Virus record (IMG/VR): IMGVR_UViG_2684622670_000007
Location: 1 to 5,383 of that record
Direction: 5' to 3' (one strand)
Length of the DNA stretch: 5,383 nt
Source of the DNA: a virus
Taxonomy: Duplodnaviria; Heunggongvirae; Uroviricota; Caudoviricetes
The notes under the pieces are model-generated. The model was not told the DNA's origin, did not search any database, and saw nothing but the letters and a program-made list of their open reading frames with translations. Position 1 is the first letter of the stretch, and each line of letters opens with the position of its first letter. A program made the translations under genes and the position numbers. This document shows, one piece after another, positions 1 through 5,383 of the stretch.

Positions 1-436
1 GTACCGGTTTAACCTCGTCACGGGGCTTTCTGATGGCTGAAAGACGCTTTACAAGTTCATCCATCGCCTGACTCGATGCGTCGATGGTTCCGCTTTGGAT
101 TGGTTCACGCATTTCATCCATGATTTCCAGCACCAGACGGCGGTGATAGTTATCCGCGACCATTCCGGCATATCCCTTCAGGTTTGCGGCACTCGGGCAG
201 TTTTTGCTGGTCATCAGGATTGACGTGAAATGCTCCTCTCCGCACGCCTCGGCAACCATCAGCGCGTCGATTAGGTTTCTGTTTCGCGCCTGCTTCCGGA
301 TAACCTCGAAGGCTTTCCGGTAGAGCGGAATTGAAAACGCTTCCGGCTCAAGCGTTGCCAGAACGTCACTGGCAGTTGGTGTTAATCCACCAATCAGCAG
401 GCCACCGATAACGCTCGCTTCGATATCCTGTTTCAT
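1..436 (-). CDS. Replicative DNA helicase, DnaB family (phage P22 gene 12-type), N-terminal ~145 codons only; gene continues past the left edge
   Basis: Manual minus-strand translation from ATG (revcomp 434-436) gives [17 protein letters not shown]...[18 protein letters not shown]..., matching the conserved DnaB N-terminal domain (E. coli DnaB ...EAEQSVLGGLML...NTPSAANISAYADIV...). The start overlaps the stop of the upstream O-like gene (ATGA), suggesting translational coupling. Not in the ORF track because it is truncated by the window edge. Confidence 0.7.
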
Positions 437-1380
437 GCAATCCCCCTGTCTGCAAACTTTCCTTCCCGTACTCCCGTTAACGAATCTTCCCTCAGCAGGT
501 AATCAAAATCTGCCGTCCAGCCCGTGTCGTTGTCTCCGAAGTAAAACGGCTTGGCCTGATGCACAAACGCCCTGACATACGCTCTGAAACCGTCCACGTT
601 TGGCGTTTTCAGTTGCGGGATAATTTTCTTCAGGCGGCGTTTGCGTTTCTCGTTGACCGCAACAGCGTGTGGAAGTCTGTCACCGACTTCGGTGTTGTAG
701 GCGTTCAGGAAGGATTCGTAGTCGATTCGTTCTGCCTTGCGACGTTCAGGTTTAACCTGCCAATCGCCTCCCCCATTGGGGGGTAGGGGGGTATTATTTA
801 TATTCTTGTTAATACCTTCTTGTTCATGATGTGCGGTTGTTTGTGCGGCTTCATGTGCGCTTTCATGTGCGGCATGTACTCTGAAAGCCGCGCCATTACT
901 GGCTTCGTCATGTGCGGCATCATGTGCGGTTGTTTGTGCGGCTTCATGTGCGGGTGAATCGTCCGTTTTTTGAGCATATTCATGGTAATTTGTGATGGTA
1001 ATCACACGACCTTTTTGCTTCTCTCCATCAATGGTGATCATCTCCTCTTTCACAAAAACCTGAAGCATCCGCTCAACCTGATCACGGCTTGCCGGCTTGC
1101 CATGCCTGTCGCATAACTGAAGACCTAAATCAGCTGCTGTCACAACCAGTTGACCGGGTTGCAGATGCCATTCATGACCTTTGAAATTCGCTTTGTATGG
1201 CTTTCTGGCGGCATTCAGGAGAAGGTTTTCCCACAGGGTGCGAAGATAAACATCTTTCGCCCATGACTGTTTCAGAATGCTCCGGTACAACGGAATGTAA
1301 CCAGTTTTCTGGTTCTCCATCCTGTTGCTCCTGCGCTCGTGTGCGGCGCTGAAATCGTAGATTTTTGCTGTATTGCTCAT
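433..1380 (-). CDS. Replication initiation protein, lambda O / P22 gp18-like (315 aa)
   Basis: N-terminus MSNTAKI... resembles lambda O (MTNTAKI...). Sits downstream of cII and upstream of the helicase, as in lambdoid replication modules. The central low-complexity linker ([17 protein letters not shown]...) is encoded by the iteron arrays. A Shine-Dalgarno-like AGGCAGGT precedes the ATG. Confidence 0.85.
790..953. repeat. Putative phage replication origin inside the O-like gene: two arrays of four 12-bp-spaced iterons (core TGTGCGG) plus a flanking AT-rich segment
   Basis: TGTGCGG cores (one TGTGCGC variant) start at 830, 842, 854, 866 and at 911, 923, 935, 947, giving an exact 12-bp period within each array. 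A 35-bp unit at 825-859 is repeated at 918-952 with 34/35 identity. The AT-rich stretch 790-824 lies immediately downstream in the O reading direction, the same iteron-then-AT-rich order as lambda ori. Confidence 0.6.
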
Positions 1381-1382
1381 AA

Positions 1383-1655
1383 CTACCTGCCTTGACGAAA
1401 GACCTTAAGAACATCGTTAAACTGACTTACGGATATGTCTTCTTTGAGCAGCTTTTCCAGAAATGCGTTTGGAATGAACGTATATCCCTCCTCTTTTGGT
1501 AGGGACGGGAGCAACGCCCTCGCCTCAGCCTTCAGAAGCTCAGTTCTGGCAACTTTCACAAAAGAGATTTGAGTTCTTTCATCAATGGAACGAAGGAAGC
1601 GCAAACGCTTAACTTCTTTGTGTGTATCAGGTGGATTAAAGCCTTTGTTTCGCAT
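1383..1655 (-). CDS. Hypothetical protein (90 aa) between cII and the O-like gene
   Basis: Internal ATG (revcomp 1653-1655) is preceded by GAGGTAA at good spacing. The 146-aa version in the ORF track would overlap the cII-like gene by about 145 bp in another frame, so the shorter start is preferred. The stop lies 2 nt before the O-like ATG. No homologue recognised by eye. Confidence 0.5.
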   Translation of the reverse strand: MRNKGFNPPDTHKEVKRLRFLRSIDERTQISFVKVARTELLKAEARALLPSLPKEEGYTFIPNAFLEKLLKEDISVSQFNDVLKVFRQGR

Positions 1656-1666
1656 ATAATTACCTC

Positions 1667-1735
1667 GTTGGATGTTATTAAAATTCCATTTGTATTTGAT
1701 CAGAACGCTCGGTCTTGCACACCGGGCTTTTTTTA
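1667..1735 (+). ncRNA. OOP-like antisense RNA (promoter pO-like plus intrinsic terminator), antisense to the 3' end of cII
   Basis: Perfect -10 TATAAT at 1655-1660 with a weak -35. Plus-strand hairpin 1707-1713/1721-1727 (7 bp, one G-U) followed by T7 (1728-1734) lies inside the cII 3' coding region. The predicted ~68-nt transcript would overlap cII by ~57 nt, as lambda OOP does. Confidence 0.45.
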
Positions 1736-1977
1736 TTGGTGAGTCCATCAAGCGCATACTTAAAAGCCCTGCTAATCGGACTGATGTCTGATGCCATTCC
1801 AAAAGCACACAAGACCGAAGCAATAAATCTCCAGTCCGTTCTGCTTATCTTCGATTCATGACAGCCAATCATCTTTGCCAGACCGCGCTGGGTAAGCGTT
1901 GACAGGTTGATGAGTAAATCTGTTTCTGCGCGATCAACGTCGCGCTGTGATAGTTTGCTGTAACTTGTTTGTTCCAT
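1678..1977 (-). CDS. cII: cII-like transcriptional activator (99 aa)
   Basis: The translation aligns with lambda CII from recall: HTH region ...ESKISRTDW... and C-terminus ...LTNKKSPVCKTERSDQIQMEF versus lambda ...LTNKKRPAATERSEQIQMEF. Position downstream of cro and nutR is as expected. Confidence 0.85.
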   Translation of the reverse strand: MEQTSYSKLSQRDVDRAETDLLINLSTLTQRGLAKMIGCHESKISRTDWRFIASVLCAFGMASDISPISRAFKYALDGLTNKKSPVCKTERSDQIQMEF

Positions 1978-1987
1978 TTCTTATGAT
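1955..1987 (+). promoter_or_regulatory. PRE-like cII-dependent promoter: TTGC-N6-TTGT (1955-1968) with candidate -10 TATGAT (1982-1987), directed toward cI and antisense to cro
   Basis: Lambda CII binds TTGC-N6-TTGC repeats flanking the -35 of PRE, located over the first codons of cII on the opposite strand. The same geometry is seen here (cII ATG = revcomp 1975-1977). The -10 is inferred from spacing. Confidence 0.5.
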
Positions 1988-2004
1988 TTCCAATAGTGAA
2001 TATT

Positions 2005-2027
2005 ACGCATCTGTTGATGCGTTTTTT
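2005..2027 (+). terminator. Intrinsic-terminator-like hairpin plus T-run on the plus strand in the cro-cII intergenic region
   Basis: ACGCATC (2005-2011), loop tgtt, GATGCGT (2016-2022), then a T-run through 2027. On the minus strand (cII leader) the same hairpin is preceded by an A-run and is not terminator-like. Function uncertain. Confidence 0.35.
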
Positions 2028-2028
2028 G

Positions 2029-2067
2029 TGGGGACGAATCATCCCCGACCTGATTGTTTAAAGAGCG
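2029..2067 (-). promoter_or_regulatory. nutR-like site: boxA (minus-strand CGCTCTTTAAACAA, plus coords 2054-2067) and boxB hairpin (plus coords 2029-2047)
   Basis: boxA is close to the recalled consensus CGCTCTTTAACAA. The hairpin GGGGA-ugauucg-UCCCC reads the same as the one downstream of PL (3761-3779). It lies between cro and cII, as lambda nutR does. Confidence 0.6.
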
Positions 2068-2074
2068 GTGTTAC

Positions 2075-2299
2075 TTATGCTGCCTGATTCGGTTTTGGAA
2101 ACAGGTGTGGCAAATCGGGGCGAATTTCGTAAGCCTTGATCTGCCCTCCAGTGGCGTTAACGATGGCGGTAACTTTCTCTGGAGAGACCAACCCGCCTTT
2201 CAGCCATTTGTGTACTGCTGGCTGCGTTACACCACACTTGTCGGCAAGGCGCTTTTGGCTACCGACAATTTTCAAGGCTCGTTGAATTACTAAATTCAT
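2075..2299 (-). CDS. cro: Cro-like repressor, HTH_XRE family (74 aa from the preferred start; ORF track extends to 2320)
   Basis: HTH segment GSQKRLADKCGVTQPAVHKW. First gene downstream of predicted PR. The ATG at 2297-2299 is preceded by AGAGGT at 7-nt spacing, whereas the ATG at 2318-2320 has no SD and lies about 6 nt from the predicted transcription start. Confidence 0.75.
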   Translation of the reverse strand: MNLVIQRALKIVGSQKRLADKCGVTQPAVHKWLKGGLVSPEKVTAIVNATGGQIKAYEIRPDLPHLFPKPNQAA

Positions 2300-2332
2300 G
2301 AGCATACCTCTTGTGGTCATTACTTATAACCA

Positions 2333-2361
2333 AAGATAACTCAAGTTATAAAAAATAGCAA
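2333..2361 (-). promoter_or_regulatory. PR-like promoter (minus strand): -35 TTGCTA (2356-2361), 17-bp spacer, -10 TATCTT (2333-2338)
   Basis: Sigma70-like hexamers overlapping OR2 and OR1. The same -10 hexamer and flanking AGTTATCTTT are found at the predicted PL. Confidence 0.55.
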
Positions 2362-2398
2362 TAACCTTTGTTATTTTACTTTGGATAACCGTAGTTAT
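2336..2398. promoter_or_regulatory. Tripartite right operator: OR1 2336-2349 (ATAACtcaaGTTAT), OR2 2361-2374 (ATAACctttGTTAT), OR3 2385-2398 (ATAACcgtaGTTAT)
   Basis: Three perfect 14-bp palindromes of form ATAAC-N4-GTTAT with 24-25 bp centre-to-centre spacing, between divergent cro and cI. Related sites occur in the OL region. Confidence 0.7.
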
Positions 2399-2401
2399 AG
2401 A
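2373..2401 (+). promoter_or_regulatory. PRM-like promoter for cI: -10 TATAGA (2396-2401), poor -35; the cI mRNA is probably leaderless or nearly so
   Basis: The -10 overlaps OR3 and the predicted start is 1-3 nt before the cI ATG (2411), as for lambda PRM. The weak -35 is consistent with an activator-dependent promoter. Inference only. Confidence 0.4.
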
Positions 2402-2410
2402 TTTGTGGGT

Positions 2411-3118
2411 ATGAAAACATTCGCAGAAAGACTAAATGCAGCCATGAGCTCAGCAGGTGTATCGCAATCACAGCTTGCTGACATGGTTGGAATATCTCAG
2501 CCAGCCATACAGAAGATGTCATCCGGTAAAACAAACGGATCTCGCAAGATGGTTGAATTAGCCAATGCTTTAAAAGTACGCCCTGAATGGCTTAGCTCTG
2601 GTATTGGTGAAATGAGGGATGGTACACATGAAGAACCATCCAATGTCCGTGAATCATCTTTAAAAGCTGTGGTATGGGAAGATATTAAAAGAAACGATGA
2701 CGAGTTTGTCGCGTTGCCTCTTCTTAACGTTTCGCTTTCAGCTGGAAGCGGTAGCTGCGAGCTAGAGGAATCATCAGAGTTCTCTTTGGTTTTCAGAAAG
2801 TACTATCTGAAAAAGATGGGGGTATCTGAAAGATCAGCCAAGCTAGTTAGGGTTGTAGGGCAAAGCATGGAACCAACGCTTCACGACGGAGATGTTGTTG
2901 GTGTTAACACACAAGATACCACAATCAGAGATGGTAAAACCTACGCTATTTGCCAGTCTGATTTGTTACGAGTAAAAACATTAATCGCCACCCCTACATC
3001 GGTGATAATCAGATCAATAAATCGCGAAGAGTACCCAGATGAAGTAATGGATAGAGATGAATTTCATGAAACCGTAAGGATTATTGGCAGAGTATTCTGG
3101 TCGTCTCATAGTTGGTAA
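2411..3118 (+). CDS. cI: CI-like prophage repressor: N-terminal HTH_XRE domain plus C-terminal S24 (LexA-type) autopeptidase domain
   Basis: HTH QSQLADMVGISQPAIQKM; S24 motifs GQSMEP (Ser nucleophile) and RVKTL (Lys); candidate Ala-Gly cleavage site in LSAGSG. The ORF track begins at TTG 2381, but the ATG at 2411 (MKTFAERL...) fits the promoter geometry. Confidence 0.9.
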   Translation: MKTFAERLNAAMSSAGVSQSQLADMVGISQPAIQKMSSGKTNGSRKMVELANALKVRPEWLSSGIGEMRDGTHEEPSNVRESSLKAVVWEDIKRNDDEFVALPLLNVSLSAGSGSCELEESSEFSLVFRKYYLKKMGVSERSAKLVRVVGQSMEPTLHDGDVVGVNTQDTTIRDGKTYAICQSDLLRVKTLIATPTSVIIRSINREEYPDEVMDRDEFHETVRIIGRVFWSSHSW

Positions 3119-3158
3119 CCGATAATCAGAAGAAGACTTACGGAAGTGCGGAGGGATA

Positions 3159-3455
3159 ATGGAATTTCTGATAGTTTTTGTTGTTGTTTTGGTCATCATT
3201 CTTTTTGTTTTGCTAAGCATTAGCAAAAAGCTATCTCAAACGATTGAACATAGCTCTAATCGCGCAAAAGAAGAAGACCATCTAATTGATATAAAAGAGA
3301 TTCTCTCTGATATAAAAATCACATTAGATGAAATAAAATACACAACAGATCTAATTGAACAGTATAAAATACCAACCCCAAACGAGAGAAAAGCAATAGA
3401 TCAATATCGTATTGACTTAGAAATCGACGAAATGCTAAGCAAAAGAAAAGACTAA
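3159..3455 (+). CDS. Small membrane protein (98 aa): one N-terminal transmembrane helix then a charged, probably coiled-coil domain; sits in the position of lambda rexAB and is probably co-transcribed with cI
   Basis: Strong SD GGAGG (3150-3154) before the ATG. Hydrophobic residues 3-21 (FLIVFVVVLVIILFVLLSI) are followed by a K/E/D-rich region. Markedly AT-rich compared with the flanking phage genes. Lies 41 bp downstream of cI and is followed by an intrinsic terminator. Confidence 0.6.
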   Translation: MEFLIVFVVVLVIILFVLLSISKKLSQTIEHSSNRAKEEDHLIDIKEILSDIKITLDEIKYTTDLIEQYKIPTPNERKAIDQYRIDLEIDEMLSKRKD

Positions 3456-3460
3456 AAACA

Positions 3461-3490
3461 CCCGGCCTCAGCGCCGGGTTTTCTTTTCCT
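3461..3490 (+). terminator. Rho-independent terminator ending the cI operon; possibly bidirectional
   Basis: Stem CCCGGC (3461-3466) / GCCGGG (3473-3478), 6-nt loop, then TTTTCTTTTCC. An A-run upstream (3454-3458) gives a U-run for the opposite strand. Confidence 0.75.
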
Positions 3491-3608
3491 GCCGTCCCCC
3501 CCCCAATCAACCATCCTCATCATAGACAAGCATCAAGCCAAAGGTAGCACTTTCACCCCGCACGCAAGCCCTCAAACACCAATCAATCAGCAACATTTAC
3601 AAAAATAA

Positions 3609-3691
3609 AATACCTTTGTTATCCATCACCTATAACTTATTTACCATAAAATATAAACTAAGTTATTGACCACACCTATAACCTAAGTTAT
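3609..3691. promoter_or_regulatory. Left operator region: OL1 3678-3691 (ATAACctaaGTTAT, perfect), OL2 3653-3666 (one mismatch), weaker OL3-like site 3609-3622
   Basis: Same 14-bp ATAAC-N4-GTTAT family as the OR sites. OL1 and OL2 are 25 bp apart and overlap the predicted PL hexamers. Confidence 0.6.
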
Positions 3692-3694
3692 CTT
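3666..3694 (+). promoter_or_regulatory. PL-like promoter: -35 TTGACC (3666-3671), 17-bp spacer, -10 TATCTT (3689-3694)
   Basis: Sigma70-like hexamers overlapping OL2 and OL1, directed toward nutL and the N-like gene. Confidence 0.55.
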
Positions 3695-3740
3695 TAAGCC
3701 ATCAGCAGGACGCAGGAAGCCAAACGGAACAGATTGGCAG

Positions 3741-3779
3741 GCTCTTTAACATTGATGGAATGGGGATGATTCGTCCCCA
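3741..3779 (+). promoter_or_regulatory. nutL-like site: boxA GCTCTTTAACA (3741-3751) and boxB hairpin (3761-3779)
   Basis: boxA-like motif followed 9 nt later by a hairpin, TGGGGA-tgattcg-TCCCCA, that matches the nutR hairpin at 18 of 19 positions. Lies between PL and the N-like gene. Confidence 0.6.
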
Positions 3780-3933
3780 CCAAAGAGAGGTTGGCTTTGG
3801 GATTTGATGAATGTGCAGGTCGATGCACTAACGCTTAGCGGTGAGCACCTGCCTTTGGGGCAGGATGGGTAGCCGCAATCAGGAGATCGACACCTGACAT
3901 CAAATCACCAAAGTCAATCATCGGAGGTATCCA

Positions 3934-4140
3934 GTGAAAGCAAGAGAGATTCGCAAACTCGAACGCGCTCGTAAGCACAAAGAGGCGACAGCAAAACGTA
4001 AAAATATTGACCGTGTTTCAATGGTGGTTTCGCTAGCAGGAGCGAATAGGAAGAAGGTTGAATGTGGTTCGTGCTGCCTGCCAAACGTAGCTCTTTACGC
4101 GGCAGGCTACCGGAAATCAAAACAACTGACGGCGAGGTGA
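3934..4140 (+). CDS. N: N-like transcription antitermination protein (68 aa, GTG start)
   Basis: First gene downstream of PL and nutL. Arginine/lysine-rich N-terminus (MKAREIRKLERARKHKEATAKRK). The C-terminal part resembles N proteins of P22-type phages from recall (unverified). Strong SD GGAGG (3923-3927) 6 nt before the GTG. Confidence 0.7.
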   Translation: MKAREIRKLERARKHKEATAKRKNIDRVSMVVSLAGANRKKVECGSCCLPNVALYAAGYRKSKQLTAR

Positions 4141-4161
4141 CGATCCCCCGCCGTCGAGGAA

Positions 4162-4701
4162 CTAAATTAGCTCATCAGCTTTACCAGCAAAGCGCATATA
4201 ACACTCATAGAACCAGACGTCAGGTATAACAAATTTCTCTTTACCTGACGCGCTGTAAGTCACACCTGAGCGATGGAGAAGGCCTTTTCTCATAAGAGAT
4301 AAAGCGACCGGATCGCCGTGCTTAAGTACGATTTTGTTATTTGCCATAACAGCAAATGCTAAAACCTCTTTTTCCTGAATACTCAGAGAATTGAACAGGC
4401 GCTCAGTCTCCACAATTACTTTAGCCTCATCTCTCTTACTGAGATATTTTTTATATCTGTCTGAAGATGCCAGAAATATAAACTCCATCACCCTGTTCAG
4501 AACATAACTGATACACAAAAGCATTGCGTAATACATCCAGTGATCTGGAAGTATTTCGGGGTTCCTTATATCTACCCACTCTTTAATTGATGCTGGGGTG
4601 ATTATTATCAAGGCAATTAAAATAATAAGCATATGAATTAACTGTTGTAGCGTAAGACCACGCAGGAAGAAACGTAATAGTTCCTGCCACCAGTTACTCA
4701 T
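4162..4701 (-). CDS. Membrane protein (179 aa), putative superinfection exclusion protein B (SieB)-like
   Basis: Convergent with and abutting the N-like gene, the arrangement I recall for lambda sieB and N. N-terminal hydrophobic segment (LIHMLIILIALIIITP) and soluble C-terminal domain. GGAG-type SD before the ATG. Low GC. The assignment rests on position, size and topology only. Confidence 0.5.
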   Translation of the reverse strand: MSNWWQELLRFFLRGLTLQQLIHMLIILIALIIITPASIKEWVDIRNPEILPDHWMYYAMLLCISYVLNRVMEFIFLASSDRYKKYLSKRDEAKVIVETERLFNSLSIQEKEVLAFAVMANNKIVLKHGDPVALSLMRKGLLHRSGVTYSASGKEKFVIPDVWFYECYMRFAGKADELI

Positions 4702-4720
4702 CGGTGAATCTCCATCATTC

Positions 4721-4768
4721 TCTCTGTAGGGGTGAATAGAGTTTATCCGATTTCTCGCTGTAGGGGTA
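4721..4768. repeat. Imperfect direct repeat with shared core CTGTAGGGGT in the divergent intergenic region
   Basis: TTCTCTCTGTAGGGGTGAATAGAG (about 4719-4742) and TTTCTCGCTGTAGGGGTACACGAG (about 4751-4774); the cores are ~35 bp apart, between the divergent SieB-like and 149-aa genes. Confidence 0.45.
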
Positions 4769-4846
4769 CACGAGAACCACCGAGCCTGATGTGGTTAAAA
4801 GACAGGCGCAATCTTTACAACCGCAATCCACTATTTAAGGTGATAT

Positions 4847-5296
4847 ATGGAAGAACAAGCAAACAAGATTCTCGTAGAACTACTGCAAAAAGCCAGTAAT
4901 GGAATAGACGCGGCTGTTTCATTTAGCCAGGCACAGATTCCTGATGTTGTTCATCAGTTGCTGCTATGGAATATGGTTGACAGTCTGATTAAAACATTAA
5001 TAGCCATTCTAACAATCCCACTGGTTTTCTGGTTTATGAAGAAGCAGTGCCAAAGAGTTGAGACAGGTAAAATCGGTGATGAAGGATACTCATGGGAAAG
5101 GGGAAATCCCAAATACAGGCCGACAATGGTTTGGGATAGCAAAGGAGATATTAACCTTCTTATCATGCCATTGGTTGGAGTTTTGACTCTGTGGGGGATT
5201 TTTATTATTGGTGTAGTAACCAATATGACTTGGTTAAAAATTTGGCTGGCCCCAAAACTTTACCTTATCGAATATGCAGCATCATTGGTTAAGTAA
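4847..5296 (+). CDS. Hypothetical membrane protein (149 aa, two predicted transmembrane helices)
   Basis: SD AAGG (4837-4840) 6 nt before the ATG. Hydrophobic segments LIKTLIAILTIPLVFWFM and LLIMPLVGVLTLWGIFIIGVV. Low-GC, divergent from the SieB-like gene. No homologue recognised. Confidence 0.55.
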   Translation: MEEQANKILVELLQKASNGIDAAVSFSQAQIPDVVHQLLLWNMVDSLIKTLIAILTIPLVFWFMKKQCQRVETGKIGDEGYSWERGNPKYRPTMVWDSKGDINLLIMPLVGVLTLWGIFIIGVVTNMTWLKIWLAPKLYLIEYAASLVK

Positions 5297-5383
5297 TTTC
5301 AGGCCGCATAATCGTCCTTTATTTTTGGCATAAACAACAGAATAAACACTGCACTGTGTATTCATTCCAACGAGTGAATACAC

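Follow-up and report, generated by a model that had tools for sequence, protein, structure and literature searches.

Phages P22 and lambda encode a superinfection exclusion protein, SieB, which lysogens express from a dedicated promoter and which causes lytic growth to abort when a heteroimmune relative superinfects (PMC10883804, PMC7380047). During exclusion, the synthesis of DNA, RNA and protein stops midway through the lytic cycle (PMC10883804). For its own lytic growth to escape, the phage needs Esc and the antisense RNA sas, which redirects translation of the sieB mRNA away from SieB and towards Esc (PMC12197685). The phage's own growth is spared because the product to which translation is turned, Esc, is an inhibitor of SieB. 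In the GenBank record of P22 (NC_002371), the sieB promoter is placed at 29690-29720 with the RNA start at 29727, and esc is an in-frame internal product that begins at SieB codon 25. The sequence of the P22 sas RNA, which is 127 nt long, is also available (PMC13397905).

Two other exclusion systems of these phages are useful for comparison. P22 SieA, like SieB, is a prophage-encoded exclusion protein, and it resides in the inner membrane (PMC10883804). It differs from SieB, whose block falls midway through the lytic cycle, in preventing DNA injection at an early stage, and it belongs to another protein family and lies at another position in the genome. RexA/RexB of lambda form a prophage-expressed exclusion system that is linked to the immunity region, has a membrane component and aborts infection after entry. 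SieB resembles Rex by functional analogy, but the two have no sequence relation, and Rex consists of two proteins encoded beside cI.

The lambdoid immunity region

The DNA analysed here is a stretch of 5,383 nucleotides (the window; positions 1 to 5,383 of IMG/VR record IMGVR_UViG_2684622670_000007, Caudoviricetes). It is a lambdoid immunity region that runs in the direction opposite to that of the usual lambda map. On the minus strand are an O-like replication gene (433-1380), a cII-like gene (1678-1977) and cro (2075-2320), followed on the plus strand by a gene for a cI/LexA-type repressor with Peptidase_S24 and HTH domains (2381-3118). A repetitive stretch at 798-1000 in the O-like gene, which also has repetitive ORFs in other frames, probably represents origin iterons of the kind located within lambda O. 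The slot beside cI that holds rexA and rexB in lambda is occupied, directly past the repressor gene, by an ORF for a 98-aa membrane protein (3159-3455, plus strand; GC 0.306) with an N-terminal hydrophobic helix. It matches phrog_18389, a family with no assigned function, and is followed by a bidirectional hairpin terminator (3460-3479); we consider this ORF a candidate for a moron or exclusion gene that is expressed in the lysogen.

Operator-like palindromes and a pL-like promoter are found on the plus strand near 3627-3694. The repeats TATAAyCTAAGTTAT at 3652-3666 and 3677-3691 are also present beside cro, and the predicted promoter itself (TTGACC-17-TATCTT) lies at 3666-3694; it is the putative source of a transcript antisense through sieB. 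Downstream of it, the N antiterminator gene (3934-4140, plus strand) encodes 68 residues with an arginine-rich N-terminus and scores 60.3 bits against the Pfam N_peptide model, for which the cut-off is 27.9. Its GTG start is preceded by GGAGG at a distance of 6 nt, with an in-frame stop upstream at 3895-3897. The N module is of a specificity type unlike that of P22: the N protein has MKAREIRKLERARKHKE in its N-terminus, and the hairpin GGGGATGATTCGTCCCC (3762-3778) comes after a boxA-like sequence GCTCTTTAAC (3741-3750). In the E. coli prophages that are closest to the window among those sharing its sieB or its flanks, the boxB sequences and the N-termini of N are different.

The order cI (plus), oL/pL, N (plus), sieB (minus) and the ral-region slot is the same in the P22 and lambda records. 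An interpretation of this locus made from the sequence alone had compared the convergent arrangement of N and sieB with that in both phages, and the two annotated records agree with it. In P22 the gene shares its position and orientation with the window gene and is convergent with gene 24/N. The stop codons of N and sieB are 21 nt apart in the window; the gap is likewise about 20 nt in P22, while lambda sieB, which is also convergent with N, abuts it with no gap. Just past sieB in the pL operon is a plus-strand ORF of 149 aa (4847-5296) with hydrophobic stretches. It matches phrog_3054, a family with no assigned function, and neither Pfam nor NCBIfam nor PADLOC gave a match. At its ATG and first codons it corresponds to the beginning of lambda orf28, at a position that is kept in P22, and the sequences are divergent thereafter.

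The sieB gene and its protein

The sieB coding sequence (4162-4701, minus strand) is an ATG-initiated ORF of 179 codons plus stop, as the sequence-only reading had described it. A Shine-Dalgarno sequence, GGAG (4710-4713, minus strand), is located 8 nt 5' of the start codon (AGAATGATGGAGATTCACCG-ATG). Beginning 6 nt past the stop codon there is a terminator-like hairpin for the sieB transcript (4128-4155, minus strand) that overlaps the last codons of N and has a 10-pair stem with 8 G-C pairs and the U-rich tail AGTTGTTTTG. The GC content of sieB is 0.394, compared with 0.444 for the window. This had been read as a sign of horizontal acquisition, which is a weak argument: P22 sieB (0.392) and lambda sieB (0.386) have the same composition, so that low GC is a trait of the SieB family, and recent horizontal acquisition was rejected as its explanation.

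The protein matches the Pfam SieB model (PF14163) over residues 23-154 with 72.8 bits (gathering cut-off 26, E=2.9e-20), and over its full length (residues 1-179) it matches phrog_1301, a superinfection exclusion family (E=2.2e-93). P22 SieB falls in the same Pfam and PHROG families, and lambda SieB (NP_597779, encoded at lambda 34482-35036) is a member of the same family. RefSeq contains a protein of the same length, 179 aa, that differs from the window protein only by Y165H (WP_000073666.1, given the PGAP name 'super-infection exclusion protein B'). Given the Pfam and PHROG matches and the RefSeq annotation, the ORF is not due to chance. Of 5,426 complete E. coli genomes, 70 contain the window allele at ∼99% DNA identity, and the window sequence, in contrast to P22, matches E. 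coli prophages and not Salmonella phages.

Among phage records, tblastn ranks sieB of P22-like and lambda-like phages highest, with 46–51% identity, and no phage record exceeds 60%. P22 sieB aligns over residues 2-179 with 48.9% identity (E=4e-42), and in a three-way MAFFT alignment the identity of the window protein is 49% to P22 SieB and only 21% to lambda SieB. It is 13 aa shorter than the P22 protein and lacks the C-terminal 12 residues of the latter. When 1.84 billion cluster representatives were searched with a profile, 149 clusters proved related at E≤1e-3, of which 55 reached E≤1e-10; the SieB family is small and clearly delimited. No NCBIfam model matched the protein, PADLOC-DB v2 yielded no family match at E≤0.1, and a sequence profile search of the PDB found no relative of solved structure (best E=0.46). 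The assignment to the SieB family, which had been made on gene position, is thus borne out by the Pfam search, and the sequence-only interpretation of the gene as sieB is supported. Of its proviso that the gene might encode a divergent or distinct exclusion protein, the first part stands, given the low identity to the P22 and lambda proteins, and the second does not, as the protein is within the family. By homology, window SieB is a diverged allele inside this family and one that is already annotated in E. coli genomes.

One PHROG family, phrog_37662 (108 aa), is nearly identical to SieB residues 72-179 (window 4162-4488, E=1e-72). A second internal product starting at M72 was considered and rejected, since M72 is absent in P22 and lambda and sits inside the second hydrophobic helix; phrog_37662 probably consists of truncated gene calls of the window sieB allele in prophage data sets.

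Kyte-Doolittle analysis of SieB shows two hydrophobic segments, of which the first (about residues 16-38) is strong and the second (about 55-79) weaker. An AlphaFold2 (AF2) model, built from an alignment of 25 sequences (mean pLDDT 78.9, pTM 0.47), has a short N-terminal helix (4-13), a membrane helix (18-34), another short helix (37-46), a very long helix (55-104), the first part of which is the second hydrophobic segment, and a compact mixed alpha/beta C-terminal domain (105-179). Hydropathy and model both match the N-terminal transmembrane region and soluble C-terminal domain that had been proposed for the protein. The loop at residues 39-54 contains two basic and four acidic residues, and residues 80-100 contain six basic residues. 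Together, hydropathy and charge distribution suggest a two-helix topology in which the N- and C-termini are both cytoplasmic. The C-terminal domain is accordingly predicted to be cytoplasmic and, with moderate confidence in the fold assignment, to be winged-helix-like. Identity to P22 SieB is unevenly distributed along the chain: it is 78% in residues 1-23, 16% in the linker helix (residues 80-104) and 45% in the C-terminal domain.

Predicted promoter, Esc start and sas

All 31 nucleotides of the mapped P22 sieB promoter are identical in the window, where they occupy 4740-4770 on the minus strand and predict an RNA start at about 4733. The identity extends well beyond the promoter, with 60 of 60 bases shared across 4721-4780 and 115 of 120 (96%) across 4721-4840. 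Relative to P22, the promoter is unchanged and the leader nearly so, and the Esc methionine and the sas-encoding sequence are kept. The predicted Esc-like ORF is internal to sieB and in frame with it (4162-4632, minus strand), encodes 156 aa and starts at M24 (codon 4632-4630). This residue aligns with M25 of P22 SieB, the annotated esc start (position 2567 in the P22 extract), and lambda SieB also has a methionine at the Esc position. Within the 25-sequence family alignment the Esc-start methionine belongs to a small number of nearly invariant residues, and several family representatives have been called from it (profile position 20-22). Such an internal start is what an Esc-like product would require, and its presence in the window agrees with the reading of the gene as sieB.

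In P22, sas is antisense to the 5' end of sieB (2373-2499 in the P22 extract). Alignment of this RNA to the window places a predicted homologue at 4697-4824 on the plus strand, with 103 of 106 matches in its 3' part and a diverged 5' part. The sas region covers the sieB leader, Shine-Dalgarno sequence and start codon, overlapping the sieB transcript at 4697-4733, and does not reach the Esc AUG. This position, over the SieB AUG and clear of the Esc AUG, fits the published model of a sas-directed switch of translation to Esc (PMC12197685). The least conserved stretch of sas is the 5' part that pairs with the sieB mRNA, in which the leader and the sas 5' end differ from those of P22 (19/30 in 4693-4720), while the remainder is 96–100% identical. 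The pairing could be allele-specific, and drift may equally account for the difference. When the plus strand upstream of 4697 was scanned in the window, P22 and lambda, no sigma-70-like sas promoter with at least 8 of 12 matches was found; sas may derive either from a promoter of its own or from processing of the pL transcript. In Rfam at E≤1 nothing matched in the sieB/sas region, the sole match being a chance snoRNA-like one elsewhere. The predicted fold of sas does not exceed shuffled sequence in stability (z=−0.02), and for this reason we make no structural claim for the RNA.

A conserved intergenic control element of ∼135 nt (4721-4855), located between sieB and the leftward gene, contains the promoter of sieB and the greater part of the sas region. 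The element is 95–100% identical in P22 and lambda even though the SieB proteins share only 49% and 21% identity, respectively; in lambda the conserved upstream stretch is about 125 nt long and about 95% identical. Inside it, a direct repeat, CTGTAGGGGT, is found at 4724-4733 and 4758-4767. The conservation ends on one side at the sieB leader, where lambda is 18 nt shorter from the element to the ATG, and on the other side three codons into the leftward gene (orf28 in lambda, the 149-aa ORF in the window), these two genes having Met-Glu-Glu as their shared first codons. On these comparisons, module exchange is better indicated by the sharp breaks in identity that flank the control region than by low GC. 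E. coli 09-00049 covers 82% of the window at 96.7% identity. Coverage of 80% or more is reached by a single complete E. coli genome, and over 3100-5383 the coverage by any phage record is 37% or less. In E. coli 09-00049, a plus-strand hypothetical gene of 150 aa (4511-4963 in the extract from this genome) lies between N and the homologue of the 149-aa ORF, in place of sieB. Since another gene is found there, the sieB slot is a variable cargo site.

Proposed exclusion role and alternative explanations

We propose that the gene is sieB from the immunity region of a lambdoid prophage or phage and that it probably serves, together with Esc and sas, the same exclusion role in E. coli as its counterparts serve in P22 and lambda. 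In the lysogen, sieB would be transcribed from its own promoter, against the direction of the repressed pL. SieB would then be anchored in the inner membrane, probably by two helices, and would abort infection by heteroimmune lambdoid phages. During the phage's own lytic growth, transcription in the pL direction would supply sas, which would mask the SieB start, and the truncated Esc made instead would neutralise SieB. Lacking residues 1-23 and some of the first membrane helix, Esc may act as a dominant-negative partner. The winged-helix-like domain may be the sensor of a component of the infecting phage, or a coupler to it, and the membrane part may be the effector, possibly collapsing membrane energetics in the manner of RexB-type abortive systems. 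We infer such a membrane-depolarisation step from the published arrest of all macromolecular synthesis.

It could be argued that the protein does not act by abortive infection at all and instead prevents entry of phage DNA, as P22 SieA does. SieA itself stops injection at the inner membrane (PMC10883804), a block of this kind is common among small prophage membrane proteins, and window SieB has two predicted membrane helices. However, its homology is to SieB, which acts after entry, midway through the lytic cycle (PMC10883804), and the protein is predicted to be mostly cytoplasmic, with a periplasmic loop of only ∼16 residues, so we regard a block of entry as very unlikely. The variability of the slot, seen in the 150-aa plus-strand gene of E. 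coli 09-00049, and the occurrence of truncated SieB family members in databases might also be taken to mean that sieB is an inactive remnant carried passively in a mosaic prophage. Against this, the ORF is intact and, at 179 aa, as long as the RefSeq allele; the promoter, Shine-Dalgarno sequence, terminator and Esc start are all intact as well; and the allele is kept at ∼99% identity in the 70 complete genomes. A passive remnant is therefore very unlikely.

A further possibility is that the window allele, although a member of the SieB family, has a trigger or target range unlike that of P22 and a self-protection that is specific to the allele through the diverged part of sas. With the linker and C-terminal domain diverged from P22 to 16% and 45% identity, in contrast to the 78% of residues 1-23, the target range of window SieB, and even its trigger, could differ from those of the P22 protein. 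Furthermore, sas overlaps the sieB mRNA by its 5' ∼37 nt (4697-4733), which fall in its least conserved stretch, and the lambda leader lacks the 18 nt. The two members of a cis-antisense pair are, however, perfectly complementary by construction, and divergence of the leader may therefore be neutral drift. Allele specificity would in any case be a refinement of the proposed SieB/Esc/sas role and not a replacement for it, and we hold it to be possible, though short of probable.

The window sieB is real but ordinary. The P22 SieB/Esc/sas system was reportedly described by Ranade and Poteete in 1993, and the family, the gene position, the promoter and the Esc/sas self-protection have been known for P22 and lambda since that year; the allele itself is named in RefSeq. 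The SieB system has nevertheless been called 'less well-understood' (PMC10883804). Three alleles with 21–49% protein identity behind a nearly identical control region would make up a set suited to domain-swap and specificity work, and the predicted membrane-anchored, winged-helix-like domain provides a testable hypothesis for the sensing part of SieB. More speculatively, and as a rather doubtful proposal, SieB alleles may be specificity types in which the linker and C-terminal domain set the phages that trigger exclusion, while the sas 5' end and Esc protect only their own allele. If this is true, the sieB slot would be a self/non-self recognition module among lambdoid phages, and the window allele would be a natural third type for swaps that could identify the SieB trigger.
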